DNA from: Vulcanimicrobiota bacterium
Lineage (GTDB): Bacteria; Vulcanimicrobiota; Vulcanimicrobiia; Vulcanimicrobiales; Vulcanimicrobiaceae
Reading direction: 5' to 3'
Assembly (NCBI GenBank): GCA_963795855.1
Contig: CAWCIZ010000001.1
Location: 160,001 to 224,000, forward strand
Length of the DNA: 64,000 nucleotides
In this document: piece after piece, positions 11,073-20,948 of the stretch
How the letters are laid out: each line of letters starts with the position of its first letter
How positions within the stretch are numbered: position 1 is the first letter of the stretch
Program-made: the position numbers and the translations under genes
The notes under the pieces: model-generated
Seen by the model: the letters and a program-made list of their open reading frames with translations, nothing else
Database searches by the model: none
What the model was told of the DNA's origin: nothing

Positions 11073-12164
11073 GTGGACGCACTAGACCGGCTTTTCTTGG
11101 AGCGCGCGAACGAACTCGCGCGCCGCGGCATCGGAAACACCTCTCCGAATCCTGCGGTGGGCGCCGTCGCGGTACGCGACGGTTCGATCGTAGGCGAGGG
11201 CTATCATCACCGCGCCGGCGAACCGCATGCGGAAGCGAACGCCCTGCGAGCCGCCGGAGAATCCTCGCGCGGCGCAACGCTGTACGTGTCATTAGAACCG
11301 TGCAATCACGCCGGCCGTACGCCGCCGTGCTCGCGCGCCGTCGTCGATGCGCACATCGCGCGTGTCGTGATCGGCGTCGCGGATCCGAATCCGCGAACTG
11401 CAGGCGGCGGCATCGCACATTTACGCGCGCACGGCATCGACGTCGAAATCGCGAACGACGCGGAATCGATCGCGATTGTCGAACCGTTTGCGCGCGCGAT
11501 TCGGGCGGATCGCCCATTCGTGACGCTGAAAATGGCGATGTCGCTCGACGGCTACGTCGCGTCGGGGCGAGGCGTGCAGCAGTGGCTGACCGGCCCGCAG
11601 GCGCGTGAATTCGTGCGCGAGCTTCGCATCGCGCATGACGCGGTTGCAGTGGGCGCCGGAACCGTGCGCGTGGACAACCCGCGCCTGACGGTCCGGCCCG
11701 AACATCACCGTCTTGTGCCGTACCGGCGTGTCGTCATGTGCGAAACGGATGCGGTCGAAAGCAAAAGCCTCGTCTTTTCGCCGCGTGAAGGTTACGCGCG
11801 CACCATCGTCGCGGCGCCGGCCGGCGCGCGCGAACGGTTTACGTCGCTCGAGCGTGTTGCCGACGTGCTCTACGTCGGGCCGGATGCTTCGCGCGACCTG
11901 GACGTCGCGCTGGCGCTGCGCGAATTGCGCGGCCTCGGCATCGCGTCACTTCTATGCGAGGGCGGCCCGACGCTTGCGGCGCGCCTGTTCGAAGCGGGAC
12001 TCGTCGATCGCTTTTACGGGCTGATTGCGCCGCGGTTCTTGCGTGCGCCCCAGGCCGTACCGGTGCTTGCGCGTGGCACACTGCCGCAGGTGCGGGGCCT
12101 TCGGTTCGACCGCGTCGAACGTGTGGGGCCGGATTTACTTATCGCAGGACTCGTGGATGTTTAG
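11073..12164 (+). CDS. ribD: Riboflavin biosynthesis deaminase/reductase
   Basis: TSPNPAVG, HAE, LEPCNHAGRTPPC, KMAMSLDG, GAGTVRVDNPRL, EGG. Confidence 0.95.
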   Translation: MDALDRLFLERANELARRGIGNTSPNPAVGAVAVRDGSIVGEGYHHRAGEPHAEANALRAAGESSRGATLYVSLEPCNHAGRTPPCSRAVVDAHIARVVIGVADPNPRTAGGGIAHLRAHGIDVEIANDAESIAIVEPFARAIRADRPFVTLKMAMSLDGYVASGRGVQQWLTGPQAREFVRELRIAHDAVAVGAGTVRVDNPRLTVRPEHHRLVPYRRVVMCETDAVESKSLVFSPREGYARTIVAAPAGARERFTSLERVADVLYVGPDASRDLDVALALRELRGLGIASLLCEGGPTLAARLFEAGLVDRFYGLIAPRFLRAPQAVPVLARGTLPQVRGLRFDRVERVGPDLLIAGLVDV

Positions 12165-12771
12165 CGGATTGATTTCATCGGGTGGCACCGTGCTGCAGGC
12201 GCAGCCGGAATCGGGCGGACTGCGGCTGCGCGTGCGCTGTGAGAACGCGTCCGACGAGGAAGTGGAAGCGAAGGACTCAATCGCAATCAATGGCGTCTGT
12301 CTGACCGCTACGCGCGTCGATCACAACGTCATCGACTTTGACGTGATTCCGGAGACGCTCGCGCGTTCGAATCTCGGGTCGCTGGCTGAAGGCGACGTCG
12401 TGAACGTCGAGTATTCGCTCCGCTTGGGCGATCGTATGGGCGGACATTTCGTCTACGGACACGTCGATGCGTCCGCGCAAGTCCTGGCGCGCGAACCCGA
12501 AGGCCAAGGCGAGCGCATGCGCATCGAACTTCCGGCGTCGCTGCAGCGGTACGTCTGTGAAAAGGCGTTCGTGAGCGTCGACGGCGTGAGCGTGACGGTC
12601 GCCGCGGTAGGCGAGGGATGGTTCGAACTCGGACTCATTCCCGAAACGCTGCGGCGCACCACGCTCGGACGCAGAAAACGCGGCGAACGCGTGAATCTCG
12701 AGATCGATCCGCTCGCGCGCTACGCGGCCGGCTACGCTTTGTCCGGCACTGCGGCCAATGGCGACGTTTAA
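12157..12771 (+). CDS. ribE: Riboflavin synthase (alpha subunit)
   Basis: MFSGLI, SIAINGVCLT, GGHFVYGHVD, IPETLRRTTL, VNLEID. Confidence 0.92.
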   Translation: MFSGLISSGGTVLQAQPESGGLRLRVRCENASDEEVEAKDSIAINGVCLTATRVDHNVIDFDVIPETLARSNLGSLAEGDVVNVEYSLRLGDRMGGHFVYGHVDASAQVLAREPEGQGERMRIELPASLQRYVCEKAFVSVDGVSVTVAAVGEGWFELGLIPETLRRTTLGRRKRGERVNLEIDPLARYAAGYALSGTAANGDV

Positions 12772-13213
12772 AGACGACAAGCCCGCAAGCGCTCGAACGT
12801 TCGAGGCGCGCGTCATGGTGCAATGGGCGGACGTCGACATCGCCGGCATCATGTATTTCGCGGCATACCAGCGCGCGGCGGAGCGCGCCGAAATGGAGTT
12901 TTTCTCGGAAATCGGTTTTCCGTACCAGACGGTCTTCCAAGAGCACGACATTTGGCTTCCGCGTGTGCACGTCGAAGCGGACTATCACAAACCGGCGCTC
13001 ATGGGCGACTGGCTCCGTTTGCGCACGCACATCACGCACGTCGGCGCGTCGTCCGTCAAATGGGAGACGGTCGTGTTCAACGAGCGCACCAGCGAGGCCG
13101 GTGCGGTCATGCGGCTCACCGTCGCCTGCATGGATCGCCGAACGCTCAAGAGCCGGCCGCTTCCAGCCGCGATTCGTGCCGCGCTCGTCGCGTGCTTGGG
13201 AGATCCGCAGTGA
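12758..13213 (+). CDS. Acyl-CoA thioesterase (4HBT/YbgC hotdog fold)
   Basis: VQWADVDIAGIMYFAAY, PRVHVEADYHKP. Confidence 0.85.
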   Translation: MATFKDDKPASARTFEARVMVQWADVDIAGIMYFAAYQRAAERAEMEFFSEIGFPYQTVFQEHDIWLPRVHVEADYHKPALMGDWLRLRTHITHVGASSVKWETVVFNERTSEAGAVMRLTVACMDRRTLKSRPLPAAIRAALVACLGDPQ

Positions 13214-14253
13214 TCGTTCAGCGCACGACGATGCGGTCGGCAATTCTCGTCGAGCCGAAAAAGATCGAATTGCGCGGCGTAGCGATGCCGCAGCCGGCGC
13301 GCGGCGCAGTGGTGGTTCGCGTCCGCGCCGCACTCACGGATGGAACCGATCTCAAAGCGTATCGACGCGGACATCCGCAAATGCCCATGCCCACGCCGTT
13401 CGGGCACGAATTTTCCGGTGATGTCACTGCAGTCGGCGAAGGTGTGACGAAGTTTTCGCCCGGCGATGCGATCATGAGCGTTCACTCGGCGCCGTGCACG
13501 GTGTGCTATTGGTGCGAGCGCGGTGAAGAAGAGCTCTGCGAGTCGGTGATGGCCACGAAAATCTTGGGCGCGTACGCGGAATACATCGAGATTCCCGGAC
13601 ACATCGTCGAACGGAACTGCTACCGCAAACCGCCGGACCTCTCGTACGCCTGCGCCGCCTTTCTGGAACCGGTTTCATGCGTCGTGCATTCGCTCGATTT
13701 TCTTGCCGCCGCGAAGCGCTCCACGGTCGCCGTCATCGGGGACGGCGGGTTCGGCTTGCTGCATGCGGCGCTGCTCGCGCAGGGCGGTATGCGCGCAATT
13801 CTCGTGGGGCGCCATCAGGAGCGGATGCGCATCGGACGCGCTTTCGGCGTTCGGGAAACCATCGACGCGCGCAGCGAAGACGTCGCCCAACGCGTGCGTG
13901 AACTTACCGAAGGCCGCGGCGCGGATGCGCTCGTCGAGTGTACCGGCAAAGAAGAAATCTGGGAGGCAGCGCCGATGATGGTGCGGCGCGGCGGCACGGT
14001 TTCATTCTTCGGCGGCTTACCGTCGAGTGCGCGCGTGTCGTTCTTGGCGGGACGTCTCCATTACGATGAAGTGCGGCTCGTCAGCCCGTTTCATTTCACG
14101 CCGCGCGCGGTGAAGCGCGCATACGATCTGCTCGCGTCGCGCGAGCTGGATCCGGCGCCGCTGATCAGCGGCAGCGTGTCGTTAGAGAGCATCGGCGAGG
14201 TTTTCGCGCGCCTGGACGCGGGGGAAGGCATAAAATTCGCGATTCAGCCGTGA
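13210..14253 (+). CDS. Zinc-dependent medium-chain dehydrogenase
   Basis: GHEFSG, CxxCxxCx7C (PCTVCYWCERGEEELC), GDGGFG. The first catalytic-Zn Cys position reads D (TDGTD). Confidence 0.85.
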   Translation: MIVQRTTMRSAILVEPKKIELRGVAMPQPARGAVVVRVRAALTDGTDLKAYRRGHPQMPMPTPFGHEFSGDVTAVGEGVTKFSPGDAIMSVHSAPCTVCYWCERGEEELCESVMATKILGAYAEYIEIPGHIVERNCYRKPPDLSYACAAFLEPVSCVVHSLDFLAAAKRSTVAVIGDGGFGLLHAALLAQGGMRAILVGRHQERMRIGRAFGVRETIDARSEDVAQRVRELTEGRGADALVECTGKEEIWEAAPMMVRRGGTVSFFGGLPSSARVSFLAGRLHYDEVRLVSPFHFTPRAVKRAYDLLASRELDPAPLISGSVSLESIGEVFARLDAGEGIKFAIQP

Positions 14254-15257
14254 ACTCGAAGATGCGTGCCGCCGTTCTCTACGACGTCGACGATATTCGC
14301 ATCGAACAACGGGACGTTCCGCAGATCGGTGCCGGAGAATTGCTCGTGCAAACGCGCGCGAGCGGCATCTGCACCGGAGACGTGATGGGGTGGTACGTGC
14401 GGCGCAAGGCGCCGCTCGTGCTCGGACACGAACCCGCGGGCGTCGTCGCTGCAGTCGGCGAAGGCGTGCGAGGCTTTGCGCCGGGCGACCGCGTCTTCGT
14501 TCACCACCATGCGCCCTGTTTTGAGTGCGCCGCATGCGAGCGCGGCGATTACGTGCAATGCGCTACGTGGCGCCGAACGGCGATTCATCCCGGCGGCCTG
14601 GCCGAGTTCTTTCGCGTGCCGCGCGAGAACGTGCGCGATACGCTGCAGCTTCCGCAGAACGTGTCGTTCGTCGATGCGTCACTCGTCGAGCCGCTGGCAT
14701 GCGTCGTGAAATCGATAAAGCGCAGCGGGCTGCGCAGCGGCGAAACGATCTACGTCATCGGCCTGGGCGTCATGGGTCTCATGCACGCGCTTCTCGGGCA
14801 AGCACGCGGTGCGAATGTTGTCGGATCTGATTTTCTGGAGGAGCGCCGCGAGCATGCCGCCGCACTCGGCGTCCGCGCACTTCATCCGCGCGAGGGCTTT
14901 TCGGGTGCAAACGTGGTGATTTGCGGTCCCGGTTCGCCGGAAGCGCTGCGCGATGCGTTCGCCGCGGTCGCAGCCGGCGGAACGGTCGTCATGTTCACGC
15001 CGCTCGAACCGGGTGTGCCGTTCACCTTCGACGCGAATGACTTGTATTTTCGCGACGTAACGCTCGTGGCGAGTTATTCGTGCGGCCCGCGCGATACGCG
15101 CGAGGCGCTCGACTTCATCGCGCGCGGCGTCGTTACCGCGGAGCGGCTGGGCGCGACGCTCTTCCCGCTGGAAGAAGCGGCCGCCGCGTATGACGCGCTC
15201 CGCGGTTCGCGAATTCTCAAACCGATTGTGACGTTCGAACCGTCGCTGTTTCCCTAA
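14250..15257 (+). CDS. Zinc-dependent alcohol dehydrogenase
   Basis: GICTGD, GHEPAG, PCFECAACERGDYVQC, GLGVMG. Confidence 0.88.
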   Translation: MNSKMRAAVLYDVDDIRIEQRDVPQIGAGELLVQTRASGICTGDVMGWYVRRKAPLVLGHEPAGVVAAVGEGVRGFAPGDRVFVHHHAPCFECAACERGDYVQCATWRRTAIHPGGLAEFFRVPRENVRDTLQLPQNVSFVDASLVEPLACVVKSIKRSGLRSGETIYVIGLGVMGLMHALLGQARGANVVGSDFLEERREHAAALGVRALHPREGFSGANVVICGPGSPEALRDAFAAVAAGGTVVMFTPLEPGVPFTFDANDLYFRDVTLVASYSCGPRDTREALDFIARGVVTAERLGATLFPLEEAAAAYDALRGSRILKPIVTFEPSLFP

Positions 15258-15898
15258 ACGGTGGGATAGCCCGGGCCGCCCGAAACGCGGTTCAGCGTTG
15301 CTTCCGATCCAATGGTTCCCGTCGTTGTCGTCTGCGTTTCGCCGCCGCGCCACGCTGCGCGCGCTTCGGCCTGCGATTGCTGAGCAACGGAGAGATCCAC
15401 CGGCATACCGATGTCGTTCAAATCCTGTACGACAACCGACGGAAGCAGGTCGCCGATTTCAACGATCGCCTGCGTGTAGTCTTCCAGATGACGGCGTGCG
15501 AGCGACGCGACGTCGGTGCTGCCGAACGCGTTGGCCGTCGTCAGCAGCATCGTGTAGCCCGCGGTACACAGCGCCAAAGCCGTGTACGAGTCGCGCAAGC
15601 CTTTCGCGACTTTCGTTTTTCGCATCTTGTCGATCGCGCTCGCCACCCACCCTTCGACGTTGGTGAACGCCGACTTCACCGGATGCGCCGGATGTCCGCC
15701 CAGCGAATCGAGCGCAGCGCGCAGCGTCTGTATGTGACTCTGCGAGAGCGACGAGATGCGCTGAGCGACTGCCGCGGCTTGCGGCATGTTGCGGAAATCG
15801 TCGTCGTTGCTTTGTGTCGTGAACGGTACGTTGACATGCTCTTCGAGGGCAAGCATGTCGCTTACGTACGTCGCTAAACTATGTTGTACGTCTGCCAT
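15254..15898 (-). CDS. Ferritin-like (DUF892/YciF-like) stress protein
   Basis: YVSDMLALEEH...H...LRDSYTAL...GYTMLLTTA four-helix pattern; ATG at 15898. Confidence 0.6.
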   Translation of the reverse strand: MADVQHSLATYVSDMLALEEHVNVPFTTQSNDDDFRNMPQAAAVAQRISSLSQSHIQTLRAALDSLGGHPAHPVKSAFTNVEGWVASAIDKMRKTKVAKGLRDSYTALALCTAGYTMLLTTANAFGSTDVASLARRHLEDYTQAIVEIGDLLPSVVVQDLNDIGMPVDLSVAQQSQAEARAAWRGGETQTTTTGTIGSEATLNRVSGGPGYPTV

Positions 15899-16329
15899 GA
15901 TGGAGGCGGTGTACCCCTCGTTCCGCGTGTTCAAGTGCGGGGCGCTCCCTCGTGTGCTGCACGGCCCGGAGGCACAGGCGCTCCGTGCCATACGTCGGTC
16001 ACCGCATGAGGTGGTACTGAACCTATGGAGGTAGCATGACCCTCCTCATCATTGGTCCGGTGCTGTACTTCGGAGGAAGGTGGCTTGTTGAAATACCCGA
16101 TCCCTATGCCCCATCTGTGCCGAACTTGTGCGAGCAAATTATGGGATGATGGGTGCCCCCATTGCGCAGGCCGATAGGCCATTCCTCAGGGAGCAACCCG
16201 CGGCTTTGCCTACAACGCGCGAATGCGAGCGCTCTTTTTGCAATTTGAAGCCCGTTGGCGTTACCAACAAAAGCCCTAAGATCATTGAGATTCCCGTTTC
16301 TTTAGTTTGCTGCTCAACCAAGTTGGTTT

Positions 16330-17397
16330 TCAGTGCCGATTGTAACGCGCCTGATCGACGACTTCCTCAATTGCGGAGATAACGGCTGTCGGATGATCTA
16401 GCAAAATTGCGTGATGCGAGGCGGCAACAACAAAGTGAGCACCGACGGACGAGAGTCGTGCCAAGTGGTCTTCAGCCTTATCCTTCGCAAGCCACTCCGC
16501 TCGTTGCGCCGCCACGGATATTGGCCCCGGCGAGTAGTCGATGTCTCCCTCCTCCGAATCGGTGAGTACGATGAGAGGAAGCTTCCCGTAGGGGCGTGCC
16601 GCGCCGCGCACTTCGGAATGGCTCTTGTCTTCCGACTTCAGTTCGAGCATTTCGTCTTTCCAAAACGAAGGTTGGGCCAAGTGCTTTGCGCGCACTTCTG
16701 CAATCGCGCATTCCCTATCGGAGGGGTTTGGACACCCTTTTACGTGTAGATACGCGGCTGCGCCAGGAAAGAACGCACATGTTCCGCGTCCCACATTCTT
16801 TGCGCAATCAGCGAACTGGCCGTACCACTCTTGTTCTTGGTTGTCGTACCACGCAAGCGGCTTGTGCATAGCGGACGTGACGATCTTCGCGTAGTCGGTT
16901 AACGTAGCGAACTCGGTGTCCGGGTCAACCTCTACGAGACCGACAACCTCGCCCGGATAGGTGTACTGAAAGAGACGCGTGTACGGGCCCCCGCTCGACC
17001 ACCCGACGAGCACGTAGGGCGCGGTGATTCCCGCTTTCTGCAGAAGTGCGTGCAAATCGCTGACGATCGCGGCCGCATCCCGCGCATCATTTGCCGGATC
17101 GCTGAAACCTAAACCGGCTCTATCGTATGAGCAGACTCTCGTGTTTTGTGAAACGGCGGGTTGCACCAATCGCCACGCTGTCGAATCAGCCAGGAGCCCC
17201 GCCTCAAGAATCACCGTCGGTGAACCTTTACCAGTGCAAACGACGTTTAGCCGTCGTCCGCCGATATCAACAAGGTGAGCAGGATGCACGTACAAACTGA
17301 CATCATACGGTTGCGGTTTGATAGGCTTCGCCGCAACTTGTGTAAGAATCATCGTGCCAATAAGGGCAGCACGAAATAAGCATGTAAATGCTTTCAC
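16330..17397 (-). CDS. Secreted alpha/beta hydrolase
   Basis: Signal peptide, VDIGGRRL, PTVILEAG, RVCSYDRAGLGFSD, nucleophile elbow GWSSGG, C-terminal His (SHHAI). Confidence 0.85.
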   Translation of the reverse strand: MKAFTCLFRAALIGTMILTQVAAKPIKPQPYDVSLYVHPAHLVDIGGRRLNVVCTGKGSPTVILEAGLLADSTAWRLVQPAVSQNTRVCSYDRAGLGFSDPANDARDAAAIVSDLHALLQKAGITAPYVLVGWSSGGPYTRLFQYTYPGEVVGLVEVDPDTEFATLTDYAKIVTSAMHKPLAWYDNQEQEWYGQFADCAKNVGRGTCAFFPGAAAYLHVKGCPNPSDRECAIAEVRAKHLAQPSFWKDEMLELKSEDKSHSEVRGAARPYGKLPLIVLTDSEEGDIDYSPGPISVAAQRAEWLAKDKAEDHLARLSSVGAHFVVAASHHAILLDHPTAVISAIEEVVDQARYNRH

Positions 17398-17423
17398 GAA
17401 TTTCCTTCCTGGGTTAAACCCAG

Positions 17424-17984
17424 TTAGTTTACGCTATTTAACGTGCGCCTGATGGATTGGTACAGACCGGCGCCAAGGCACATTGCGGGAATAGCTCCGA
17501 AAAGACCAATCCAAGCTACAAGCGGCGCTTGAGATCCTGGGTGCCCTGCGAGCGCTGGAAGGATGAAGCACAAGACGAGAAATAGTGACGCGAAAAATGC
17601 AACCCGCAGGCCATCGGTCCCCACGAGTCGCCCAAGGACCGCACCGAAAAGCGCTGCATTGACGTAGTCCATCGAAATTGTTACCGCAAGTGGCAGAAAG
17701 CTCTCTGCAATGAATACATGCACGAGGAGCATCGCAGCAAGCACGGCGAGCGTGATGAGGGCGATCCTGACCTGTCCGAGTGCGGATGTATGTGATCGAG
17801 AATACGAGAGCAGCGAGGGTATTGAAAGCAGTGCCTGCGACCAATACCAGCGCGTTGCGTCCTTCGCCCCGCGTGAATGAAGAATGCGCAGATATTCCTC
17901 CTGCAAATCGCCAGCAACGATCTCATAATCTCCTGAAGGGGCAGCTGCGGCGACGAGCGCTTGAGCGAGGGCAGGCGGCCTCAC
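17424..17984 (-). CDS. Membrane protein of the PadR-associated type
   Basis: PP..A..L...GDLQEEY...RWYWSQ N-terminus followed by about four hydrophobic segments; overlaps the PadR stop. Confidence 0.65.
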   Translation of the reverse strand: MRPPALAQALVAAAAPSGDYEIVAGDLQEEYLRILHSRGAKDATRWYWSQALLSIPSLLSYSRSHTSALGQVRIALITLAVLAAMLLVHVFIAESFLPLAVTISMDYVNAALFGAVLGRLVGTDGLRVAFFASLFLVLCFILPALAGHPGSQAPLVAWIGLFGAIPAMCLGAGLYQSIRRTLNSVN

Positions 17985-18313
17985 GCGATCACGTTCCGTA
18001 GTGATACGCCTGCGTGAAGTCGTTCGAGGGTCTTTTGCGCGTTCTTGAGTGCCGCAACGCCATCTGCCTCAACTTTGAAATGCCGTTTTGCCTTGCCGCC
18101 GCGCTCGGCGGTCGGTTCGCCGGTCCACGACGACACGAGTCCTTTTCGTTCGAGACGGTCCAGGGTCGCGTGGACGGTACCAATTGCGGGAGAGCGACCT
18201 GTTACGCGCTCGATTTCAGCGCGAATCATTGCCCCGTACGCGCCCTCGCCGAGACGGAGGATTGTGAGCAGGACAATATGCTCGAACTCCCCGAGGTACT
18301 CGCCTTTCGCCAT
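17981..18313 (-). CDS. PadR family transcriptional regulator
   Basis: LGEFEHIVLL, AYG..I, GTVHATLDRLERKGLV, PTAERGGKAKR. Confidence 0.9.
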   Translation of the reverse strand: MAKGEYLGEFEHIVLLTILRLGEGAYGAMIRAEIERVTGRSPAIGTVHATLDRLERKGLVSSWTGEPTAERGGKAKRHFKVEADGVAALKNAQKTLERLHAGVSLRNVIA

Positions 18314-18322
18314 AATTTCGAC

Positions 18323-18351
18323 ATAATAGACAATATGGCGTCCATTGTCAA
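18323..18351 (-). promoter_or_regulatory. Sigma70 promoter of padR with an embedded inverted repeat
   Basis: Minus strand TTGACA-N17-TATTAT, 9 nt before the ATG; GACAAT(18329-34)-N9-ATTGTC(18344-49) overlaps it. Confidence 0.75.
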
Positions 18352-18558
18352 TGCGCGCCCGATCCCCACGCTTCTCGGTCGACCCAATGTCAACCAACGA
18401 GGCGGGACGACGGGCGAGTTTACGAGGAAATTCGCAAATTCATGCGGGCCTGCAGAAAGTTTGATTCGCGTTGGCGTCCCGGGCGCACGACGGTTCTGCC
18501 CCAAAAAGTGGTCCTTATGCCTTCTTAGGCGACCCCGCAGCCCCAGCCCGCTTGGCGG

Positions 18559-18588
18559 CTTGACAACTGTCAAGTCCGGCGATACGGT
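18559..18588 (+). promoter_or_regulatory. Sigma70 promoter of HTH-ribBA with a palindromic operator over the -35 box
   Basis: TTGACA(18560-65)-N17-TACGGT(18583-88)-6 nt-GTG(18595); CTTGACA-AC-TGTCAAG at 18559-18574. Confidence 0.75.
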
Positions 18589-18594
18589 CGGTCT

Positions 18595-20013
18595 GTGAGT
18601 GTATTCGCCGACGAATTGAATGCCGCGATGGACGCCGCGGGGCTGAACGCCACCGAGCTCGCCCAGCGCTGCGGCCTGACCGAATCTGCCATCTCGTACC
18701 TGCGGTCCGGGCAACGGGAGCCCTCGTATCGCTCGCTGCAGCGGCTGACTCAGGTGCTGCCCGATCTGACCGGCACCCTGGAAAACGCATCGCCCTTCGA
18801 TTCCATCGAAGAGGCCGTCAAAGACGTTCGGGCCGGCAAGATGGTCATCGTGCTCGACGACGAGGATCGCGAAAACGAAGGCGATCTCGTGATGGCGGCG
18901 CAGATGGTCACGCCCGAAGCGATCAACTTCATGCGCAAGTACGCGGGCGGTCTTATCTGCGTGCCGATGATCGGCAAACGCCTGGACGAACTGCACCTGC
19001 CGCAAATGGTCTCCGAAAACAGCGCGGTGCATGAAACCGCCTTCACCGTTTCCGTTGAAGCGCGCGGTCGAACCACGACGGGCATTTCCGCGCACGATCG
19101 CGCGGCCACGATTCAAGCGCTGCTCGAACCGGCGACGAGGCCGTCCGATCTGCTGCGCCCGGGACACACGTTTCCGCTTCGCGCGCGCGACGGCGGCGTG
19201 CTCGTGCGTGCCGGTCAAACCGAAGCGTCCGTCGATCTCGCTCGACTCGCGGGTCTGTATCCCGCCGGCGTCATTTGCGAAATCATGGCCGAAGACGGAA
19301 CGATGGAGCGGCTCGATGGTTTGATCGAATTCGCGAAGCGCCACTCGTTGAAACTCATCACCGTGAAAGATCTCATCGCCTACCGGTGGCGCATGGAGAA
19401 ACTGCTGCATCGCATCGCCGAATTCAAACTCCCGACCGAAGTGGGAACGTGGACCGGCTATGCCTTTGAAAACACGATCGACGGCAACACGCACGTTGCG
19501 ATGGTTATGGGTGAAATCGGCGACGGCCGCGACTTGCTGGTGCGCGTACACTCGGAATGTTTGACCGGCGATGCCCTGCACTCGCTGCGTTGCGACTGCG
19601 CGGCGCAACGCGACGGCGCAATGCACATCATCGCAAAAGAAGGGCGCGGCATCTTTCTGTATTTACGGCAGGAAGGCCGCGGAATCGGCCTGGCCAACAA
19701 GCTTCGCGCCTACCAACTCCAAGACAACGGTGCGGACACGGTCGAAGCGAACATCGCGCTCGGCCTGCCCGTCGACAAACGCGACTACGGAATCGGCTCG
19801 CAGATTTTGGCCGATCTCGGCGTGAAAGAGATGCGTGTCATCACGAACAACCCGCGCAAAATTTTCGGTTTGGAAGGCTACGGCATCAAGATCGTCGGCC
19901 GCGTGCCGCTGCACACGGAACCTACGCAGTACAACAAGCGATATATCGCGACCAAACGCAGCAAACTCGGACACATGTTCGGCGAAACGCTGCCGCACGG
20001 CGGCCACGCATGA
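18595..20013 (+). CDS. ribBA: XRE-family HTH fused to bifunctional DHBP synthase / GTP cyclohydrolase II
   Basis: Residues ~4-55 form an HTH (GLNATELAQRCGLTESAISYLRSGQREPSYRSLQRL); then DDEDRENEGDL, TTTGISAHDR, RPGHTFPL, RVHSECLTGD..SLRCDC, YLRQEGRGIGL, TNNPRK. Confidence 0.93.
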   Translation: MSVFADELNAAMDAAGLNATELAQRCGLTESAISYLRSGQREPSYRSLQRLTQVLPDLTGTLENASPFDSIEEAVKDVRAGKMVIVLDDEDRENEGDLVMAAQMVTPEAINFMRKYAGGLICVPMIGKRLDELHLPQMVSENSAVHETAFTVSVEARGRTTTGISAHDRAATIQALLEPATRPSDLLRPGHTFPLRARDGGVLVRAGQTEASVDLARLAGLYPAGVICEIMAEDGTMERLDGLIEFAKRHSLKLITVKDLIAYRWRMEKLLHRIAEFKLPTEVGTWTGYAFENTIDGNTHVAMVMGEIGDGRDLLVRVHSECLTGDALHSLRCDCAAQRDGAMHIIAKEGRGIFLYLRQEGRGIGLANKLRAYQLQDNGADTVEANIALGLPVDKRDYGIGSQILADLGVKEMRVITNNPRKIFGLEGYGIKIVGRVPLHTEPTQYNKRYIATKRSKLGHMFGETLPHGGHA

Positions 20014-20555
20014 AAACCGCAAAAGACACCGCGCCCAAACCCGATTGCTCGGGAAAACGCTTCACGATTATCGCCGCGCGTTTCTACGAAGATCTCGCAG
20101 GCTGGCTTGAAGACGGCGCGCGCCGCGCGCTTCACGATTGCGGCGTCAAAGACGAACACATCTCGGTATATCACGTGCCGGGCTGCTTTGAATTGCCGCT
20201 CGCGGCCAAGCGGCTCATCGCGGCAGACGAACGGCTCGATGCCATTGTCGCGCTAGGTGCCGTGGTGCGCGGCGAAACGCCGCATTTTGACTACGTCGCG
20301 GGCGAATGCGCGCGGGGCTTGATGACGGTCCAGCTCGCCACCGGCGTCCCCATCGGGTTCGGCGTGCTCACGACCGAGAATCTCCAGCAGGCGCGTGATC
20401 GTGCGAACCCTGAAAAAGGTGACAAGGGTTATGATGCCGCGATCGCGGCGGCATCGTTGCTGCACATTCCCGAGGAAACGGGAAAAGAGGTCGTCGGTTT
20501 TCGGGCAGGCCGCAACGCCCTTCAACCAAGCGAGGAATCCTTGCGACACAAGTAG
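20010..20555 (+). CDS. ribH: 6,7-dimethyl-8-ribityllumazine synthase
   Basis: ARFY, VPGCFELP, LGAVVRGETPHFDYVA, PIGFGVLT. Confidence 0.93.
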   Translation: MKTAKDTAPKPDCSGKRFTIIAARFYEDLAGWLEDGARRALHDCGVKDEHISVYHVPGCFELPLAAKRLIAADERLDAIVALGAVVRGETPHFDYVAGECARGLMTVQLATGVPIGFGVLTTENLQQARDRANPEKGDKGYDAAIAAASLLHIPEETGKEVVGFRAGRNALQPSEESLRHK

Positions 20556-20592
20556 CATAAATTGGCTCGCTACTTTTGTGGAGGCTCGACCC

Positions 20593-20889
20593 TTGGAAGA
20601 CAAGAGCATTACCTGTAAAGAATGCGGGCAACCGTTTATTTTTACGGTCCGCGACCAGCAATTCTATGCCGAAAAAGGCTTTCAAAACGAGCCGCAACGG
20701 TGCCGGGACTGTCGTCAGGCTCGCAAAGGCCAGGGGGGCGGTTCGTCTTCGGGCAGCTCAGCGCGGCCGAGTTACGAAGCCGTGTGCGCCGAATGCGGAA
20801 CGTCGACGACGGTGCCGTTCCGGCCGCGCGGTGATCGGCCGGTTTACTGCCGGGCTTGCTTTGCCGCGCATCAGCCCGCGGCGGTGTAG
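20593..20889 (+). CDS. Zinc-ribbon protein with CxxC-x17-CxxC domain
   Basis: DKSITCKECGQPFIFTVRDQQFYAEKGFQNEPQRCRDCR and CAECG..VPFRPRGDRPVYCRACF; GGAGG RBS before TTG 20593. Confidence 0.88.
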   Translation: MEDKSITCKECGQPFIFTVRDQQFYAEKGFQNEPQRCRDCRQARKGQGGGSSSGSSARPSYEAVCAECGTSTTVPFRPRGDRPVYCRACFAAHQPAAV

Positions 20890-20917
20890 CCTCCACTCCG
20901 TTCTTTCAGCACAAAGC

Positions 20918-20948
20918 AAAGCCGCGCGAATGGTTCGCGCGGCTTTTT
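20918..20948 (+). terminator. Rho-independent terminator
   Basis: AAAGCCGCGCGAA-TGG-TTCGCGCGGCTTT with the T-run continuing. Confidence 0.85.

Follow-up and report, generated by a model that had tools for sequence, protein, structure and literature searches.

A helix-turn-helix–RibBA fusion in one order of the Vulcanimicrobiota, very likely an autorepressing enzyme of riboflavin synthesis

RibBA, the enzyme with which riboflavin (vitamin B2) synthesis begins, is encoded in this stretch of DNA from soil-dwelling Vulcanimicrobiota and carries an XRE-type helix-turn-helix (HTH) head in frame with both of its catalytic domains, and this HTH-RibBA is a real and conserved protein that is very likely an autorepressing enzyme. 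As judged from sequence, it probably represses its own ribBA-ribH operon, a reading to which we give a probability of roughly 0.85, since a candidate operator immediately upstream of the gene contains the predicted -35 hexamer and the blocking of sigma-70 would be the simplest consequence of its occupation. Coordinates given below refer to the window, by which we mean the whole 64-kb stretch of DNA that was analysed, and are collected in Table 1.

Profile searches place the Pfam domains HTH_3 at residues 10-55 (E 5e-7, above the cut-off), HTH_31 at residues 4-55, DHBP_synthase at residues 72-263 (E 5e-88) and GTP_cyclohydro2 at residues 273-438 (E 2e-69), and the NCBIfam model for RibBA, PRK09311, is matched at 617 bits (cut-off 569). 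AlphaFold2 models the head with a pLDDT of 74-94 over residues 1-60 and with helices at residues 3-15, 19-26, 30-38 and 45-54, and the fold bears a weak likeness to the 434 repressor; the XRE/HTH_3 head that an earlier note had recognised from the sequence is thus borne out by both the profile match and the modelled helices. The full-length model is poor over RibB (mean pLDDT 65), and the fold search performed with it returned, among the matches listed, RibB and RibA structures only. Motifs such as DRENEGD, RxHSEC, CDC and QEGRG are catalytic and zinc motifs of these enzymes. In the fused protein DRENEGD, PGH, ICE, RVHSEC, RCDC, RQEGRG, DKRDY and TNNP are all present and are near-invariant across 121 aligned proteins, which upholds the claim, also made in that note, that both catalytic sets are intact. 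The fused gene furnishes the sole PF00926 and the sole PF00925 match in the source genome (86% complete), and the intact motifs together with the single copy suggest that the protein still produces both committed riboflavin precursors.

Nine positions of the HTH are invariant in all 121 aligned proteins, and mean column identity amounts to 0.84 over HTH residues 17-47 as compared with 0.49 over residues 58-67, where the head is joined to the enzyme. Over 30 loci the uncorrected pN/pS ratio comes to 0.30 in the HTH, compared with 0.15 at the start of RibB. A two-copy model of residues 1-270 yields a RibB dimer score of 0.83 versus 0.00 for the best control, with runs that share at least 98% of contacts and a pLDDT of 92; in calibration, 20 of 30 solved pairs and 1 of 23 single chains attained the mark used for this score. 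Because RibB dimers have already been solved, the model shows likeness only. The modelled interface takes in the conserved motif residues E93, E95, H191 and E229, whereas HTH residues are not named in it and it gives no verdict on HTH contacts. Dimerisation would be supplied by the RibB domain.

A frameshift artefact as the source of the fusion is ruled out by fused homologues and by the open frames of relatives. The names of the homologues, and the Atlas cluster to which a close one belongs, indicate Vulcanimicrobiota/Eremiobacterota. The HTH Pfam label is found on 118 of the 120 best homologues, and in the phylum sample the fused N-terminus runs on without a stop in 68 of 71 genomes of the same family, and the one sampled genome of a sister family is likewise matched over the full N-terminus, so that an indel-made fusion is indeed as improbable as had been supposed. 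One detail of that earlier argument requires amendment: it had held that neither an in-frame start codon (ATG, GTG or TTG) nor a ribosome-binding site lies between the HTH and FDSIEEA, and codon 54 (18754-18756), within the last HTH helix, is a GTG in frame, though it is not preceded by an obvious ribosome-binding site. A domain-architecture search across related genomes, proposed at the same time as a check, found the fusion widely among relatives: 226 of 238 genomes of the order match, 218 of these at E<1e-30, and the 218 were taken as full-length fused proteins, with the E-value standing in for the alignment where the latter was unlisted. The eight weaker matches comprise four that are cut by contig ends, one that is frameshifted and three that are truly unfused (G077, G145 and G171). 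Nine genomes from another family of the same class match at RibB only, with absence of the HTH confirmed in six of the nine loci; the fusion is therefore a mark of one order and not of the whole phylum. In the tree the unfused RibBA of G145 nests inside fused lineages (support 100/97), which makes it a secondary loss, while the placement of G077 is weak. These genomes are related, so counts across them are not independent, and the tallies include unpublished genomes (G128, G160, G162, G165, G212 and others), none of which is the sole basis of any claim.

Upstream of the gene lies a predicted promoter whose layout suggests a leaderless transcript. It was missed by a consensus scanner, its -10 box matching the consensus at three of six positions, and among relatives the distance from TTGAC to the start codon is 34-38 nt. 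The candidate operator that overlaps this promoter recurs in every one of the 41 fused promoters that were inspected, and across relatives takes the form CTTGACA-N2-TGT(C/T/A)AAG. As its left half is at the same time the -35 box, the right arm alone constitutes independent evidence; in the 41 promoters the right arm, TGT.AAG, holds 1.3-2.0 bits per conserved position, compared with at most 0.62 for the rest of the spacer. A position weight matrix (PWM) trained on 37 other loci, with the source locus excluded, scores the site at 28.2 and the next-best site in the source genome at 14.2. That genome has 72 promoter-like sites of the form TTGAC-N17-19-TAnnnT, and the full right arm is found only at that of ribBA. 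Of 111 family genomes, 79 contain the strict operator pattern, with few exceptions at a single locus only, and a reversed control pattern gave two matches in all.

The presence of the site follows that of the HTH. In all three unfused family genomes (G077, G145 and G171) the RibBA locus is without a site, the best PWM score being at most 0.3. This joint absence rests on three genomes, of which two, G145 and G171, no longer have any of the original promoter region, through loss or replacement, while G077, the cleanest control, keeps a TTGACA-17-TAGCCT-6-ATG promoter without the right arm; five genomes were left out of the count, four because of contig ends (G018, G227, G160 and G279) and one because of two frameshifts (G347). 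The earlier reading of the protein as a DNA-binding self-repressor is thereby strengthened, in that a predicted operator lies within the very stretch that had been put forward for gel-shift assays and tracks the presence and absence of the HTH. In some genera (loci L044, L047, L048, L063 and L065) the main site is preceded on its upstream side, at a distance of about 28-29 bp, by a second and weaker operator-like copy, which possibly allows cooperative binding. A few single genomes have strong operator-like sites that do not adjoin rib genes (L078 at 4277 in G249, L062 at 2774 in G045 and L071 at 2695 in G144), and these may be due to chance or may be extra targets.

Table 1. Features of the HTH-ribBA locus (window coordinates) and of IS1595-clade elements in relatives (coordinates of each locus)
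Feature	Position	Strand	Basis
ribD-ribE, separate unit 6-7 kb upstream of ribBA	11073..12771	+	Pfam
Candidate operator, perfect 16-bp palindrome CTTGACA-AC-TGTCAAG	18559..18574	.	PWM, relatives' promoters
Predicted -35 box TTGACA, left half of candidate operator	18560..18565	+	Sequence; near-invariant in relatives
Predicted weak -10 box TACGGT, 17 nt past -35 and 6 nt before GTG	18583..18588	+	Sequence
HTH-RibBA frame, 472 aa, GTG start	18595-20013	+	Single open frame
DNA-binding head of XRE/HTH_3 type with four predicted helices, aa 1-58	18595..18768	+	Pfam, AlphaFold2
Linker, variable, aa 59-67	18769..18795	+	Column identity in alignment
RibB (DHBP synthase) domain with intact motifs, probably the part that dimerises	18796..19383	+	Profiles, alignment, dimer model
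RibA (GTP cyclohydrolase II) domain, zinc cysteines intact	19411..20013	+	Profiles, alignment
ribH, lumazine synthase, overlaps ribBA stop (ATGA); presumed co-transcribed target	20010..20555	+	Profiles
IS1595-clade element inside operator	L055 3394-5553		
IS1595-clade element inside operator	L054 4628-11240		
IS1595-clade element inside operator	L074 3058-4995		
IS1595-clade element inside operator	L075 175-2435		
IS1595-clade element inside operator	L207 855-4058		
IS1595-clade element inside operator	L209 1036-3051		
IS1595-clade element inside operator	L210 5097-7219		
IS1595-clade element inside operator	L208 4203-6024		

The regulon appears to consist of ribBA-ribH only, without ribD-ribE. 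The gene ribH follows the fusion in relatives too, whereas no PWM site scoring above 11 is found at ribD-ribE in the source genome, and no operator precedes ribD or ribE in those relatives' loci that include these genes. A wider regulon was considered and rejected on this basis, and on the basis that the next three PWM matches in the genome, scoring 12-14, are not close to any rib gene and were put down to chance.

Divergent from ribBA are a PadR gene and its small membrane-protein partner (17424-18351, minus strand); the PadR gene has a strong sigma-70 promoter (11 of 12 positions) with its -35 box within a short palindrome, ATTGTCAAT, and the 13 nt from its -10 box to the start region suggest a short or absent leader. 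After ribD-ribE come, as in many relatives, a thioesterase gene and two genes for zinc-dependent dehydrogenases (12758-15257). The interval from these dehydrogenase genes to HTH-ribBA (15254-18400) varies among relatives from about 0.1 to more than 7 kb and is an insertion hotspot, with a cargo that includes, in one relative or another, a hydrolase, an aldo-keto reductase or transposases. At 15254-15895 on the minus strand it encodes a protein of 213 aa without a Pfam match, look-alikes of which adjoin the second dehydrogenase in loci L055, L057 and L059. Downstream of ribH is a gene for a double treble-clef zinc finger (zf_Tbcl; 20578-20946), followed by a 13-pair hairpin, and the order ribH, zf_Tbcl and an mtnA-like gene is recurrent in relatives.

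In several relatives the palindrome recurs as strong extra copies 2-7 kb upstream, and these, once candidates for regulon membership, were identified instead as the ends of IS1595-family elements. An IS1595 transposase match was found in 27 of 151 family genomes. One clade of these transposases (support 100/98; 10 of 30 rows in the tree) comes from eight genomes, and in all eight it sits at the ribBA promoter; one further copy of the clade lies at a contig end and adjoins a tandem junction. The other IS1595 transposase loci show no such site within the flanks examined, and the source genome yielded no IS1595 transposase match at E 1e-40. The elements inside the operator carry passenger genes, and some are present in tandem. 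The clade duplicates the central 8 bp of the palindrome (ACA-NN-TGT), the duplication being identical in six of the seven genomes in which both ends are visible, and the termini of its elements open with CAAG or a sequence close to it, so that the -35 box and the operator are largely rebuilt on both sides of the insertion. An IS1595 element that targets an operator was not found in the literature, and the clade offers, apart from the matter of the enzyme, an example of an element with a fixed and self-repairing target.

The joining of an HTH to RibB is not confined to the Vulcanimicrobiota, as a protein search over 1.84 billion representatives uncovered unrelated HTHs fused to RibB in other phyla. 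A large family in the Hyphomicrobiales combines HTH_3 with DHBP synthase in 120 of the 120 matches listed, and RxHSEC, RCDC or QEGRG is kept in none of these 120. The catalytic motifs of RibA have thus been lost in the alphaproteobacterial fusions, which are therefore referred to as HTH-RibBX, and their loci (L119-L198) include those of Aestuariivirga, Bosea, Xanthobacter autotrophicus, Methylobacterium platani, Microvirga, Ancylobacter, Roseibium and Pseudovibrio. Upstream of HTH-RibBX a palindrome of the form T[TCG]AG-N5-CT[ACG]A, a pattern chosen from the same data on which it was scored, is present in 59 of 78 loci (those parsed from a total of 80). Among control windows 8 of 3900 contained it, and shuffling gave a mean of 0.7. 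In the loci it clusters 21-24, 39-42 and 63-69 nt before the start codon, often as two copies, and the Vulcanimicrobiota PWM scores at most 2.6 in the same regions. The fusion is not universal in its order, as ribB of Sinorhizobium meliloti is annotated in one record as 366 aa, which leaves no room for an HTH. A third and small group of HTH-RibBA proteins, with RibA motifs intact, belongs to the Chloroflexota/Dehalococcoidia (P0179, P0397 and P0398). The RibB domains of the three fusion groups fall on separate branches of the tree, for which one long-branch warning was raised, and the two main HTHs, those of the Vulcanimicrobiota and the Hyphomicrobiales, share only 14 of 38 aligned residues. 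Separate origins of the three fusions are likely on these sequence comparisons.

In the proposed mechanism, RibBA would dimerise through RibB and so bring two XRE heads together; the paired heads would bind CTTGACA-N2-TGT(C/T/A)AAG at the protein's own leaderless promoter; and the bound protein would cover the -35 hexamer, block sigma-70 and repress ribBA-ribH. A ligand held by the RibB domain, with FMN as the most plausible candidate, may then adjust the binding and take the place of an FMN riboswitch, although this last step is a guess that could fall either way; the earlier note had suggested GTP, ribulose-5-P or flavin as what the protein may sense. The variable linker speaks against tight allosteric coupling, and against autorepression itself one has to count that the HTH is less constrained than RibB, that the -10 box is weak and that the regulon is minimal. 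A variant of autorepression that differs in its signal only would have the protein respond to its own concentration, blind to any ligand, with RibB serving merely to dimerise it. The same variable linker, and the limitation of the site to the protein's own operon, would suit such dosage control, which deserves some weight but is on the doubtful side: three separate fusions place the HTH directly before RibB, where a co-transcribed stand-alone repressor would have served equally well, and conserved motif residues lie in the modelled dimer interface, so that ligands could alter the geometry of the dimer. Wang et al. reportedly found in 2019 that FMN regulates RibB and RibBX in Acinetobacter, and this too would favour a ligand.

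More distant from autorepression is the view that the palindrome is a site of recombination or insertion, either dif-like or an IS target, and that the HTH has another job or none. IS1595-family elements do lie inside it in eight relatives, and its right arm resembles a XerD arm, but use as a target gives no reason for a site to be conserved, and the clade in question occurs in only 8 of 151 family genomes. Moreover, the right arm is host DNA outside the bases derived from the element, the site is absent where the HTH is absent, and a different palindrome accompanies the alphaproteobacterial HTH, all of which makes this view very improbable. A dif site for XerCD was rejected in particular, as GC skew is positive along the whole contig and shows no switch there, and as the strict pattern, which a dif site would show whatever gene lies beside it, has no matches in the three unfused genomes. 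It is also unlikely, if a shade less so, that another transcription factor binds the site or that the fused protein activates. A weak -10 box could require an activator, and binding of the archaeal regulator RbkR is proposed, in the part of the source available (PMC5397151), to activate, with FMN causing release; yet a half-site that coincides with a -35 hexamer at a normal 17-bp spacing favours occlusion, and that each genome has about one such site, present or absent along with the HTH, speaks against some other factor. Autorepression by HTH-RibBA accommodates these observations best.

A regulator of the HTH-RibBA or HTH-RibBX kind was not found in the literature, in agreement with the earlier note, which knew of no described HTH-RibBA regulator, although databases of the RegPrecise type or supplements may mention one. 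According to the available part of a 2004 comparative study (PMC545781), no control of riboflavin synthesis other than the RFN element (FMN riboswitch) was known, and the rib clusters of some bacteria were without it; the corresponding part of the 2017 paper on RbkR (PMC5397151) still ascribes bacterial control to riboswitches. Neither the seen portion of PMC545781 nor that of a preprint on RibBX of R. palustris describes an HTH-RibBA or HTH-RibBX regulator, and the main text of the latter (bioRxiv 10.1101/2025.05.05.652280), as far as it was available, does not contain the terms 'helix-turn-helix' or 'DNA-binding'. It is tempting, if at somewhat short of even odds, to view HTH-RibB(A/X) as an undescribed class of flavin-sensing repressors that would read flavin through the RibB dimer, shut their own leaderless promoters and replace the FMN riboswitch. 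Such a class would have arisen at least three times (Vulcanimicrobiota, Hyphomicrobiales and Chloroflexota), each time with its own HTH and, where this was checked, its own operator, and the Vulcanimicrobiota operator would serve as a safe harbour for an IS1595 clade whose ends restore both the operator and its -35 box upon insertion. HTH-RibBA would then represent a protein-based answer to the control of rib genes that have no riboswitch, with a precise 16-bp candidate site. The parallel family occurs in cultured organisms (Xanthobacter autotrophicus, Bosea, Methylobacterium and Ancylobacter) and is open to ordinary genetics without a Vulcanimicrobiota culture; if ligand-gated, these proteins would provide a switch that responds to flavin, and with it a means of influencing flavin overproduction.

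Among known systems, the FMN riboswitch is the usual control of bacterial rib genes and has the same presumed purpose as HTH-RibBA. A leaderless transcript leaves no room for one, and the FMN riboswitch RF00050 was found in none of 151 genomes of the phylum, unfused ones included (7 of 14 in the control), and nowhere in the window. With regard to kind, the nearest comparison is with enzymes that double as regulators: NadR has an XRE-type head, and both NadR and BirA respond to an end product. Together with PutA these are listed as 'trigger enzymes' in the available part of PMC5397151, and they belong to different pathways; HTH-RibBA has what marks such proteins, namely a DNA-binding domain in frame with an intact enzyme. 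The closest known system, by the same partial source (Rodionova et al. 2017, PMC5397151), is archaeal RbkR, a CTP-dependent riboflavin kinase that stands at the end of the pathway and is a proposed activator of a wider regulon with transporters. Here, by comparison, an XRE/HTH_3 head is attached to the first enzyme of the pathway, in a bacterium, with a site over the -35 box, and no kinase family appears among the Pfam or NCBIfam matches; HTH-RibBA is thus not RbkR, having another head and another enzyme, and the sign of control is probably the opposite. RibA2 of M. tuberculosis (PDB 4I14) matches HTH-RibBA at E 8e-137 over residues 68-461, and what sets the fused protein apart from plain RibBA is the additional N-terminal HTH, which is covered by none of 21 PDB matches. 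Finally, RibBX of Proteobacteria (PDB 6MNZ) has a dead GTP cyclohydrolase II, a feature shared by the alphaproteobacterial HTH fusions only, whereas the HTH-RibBA of the source genome keeps RVHSEC, RCDC and RQEGRG.
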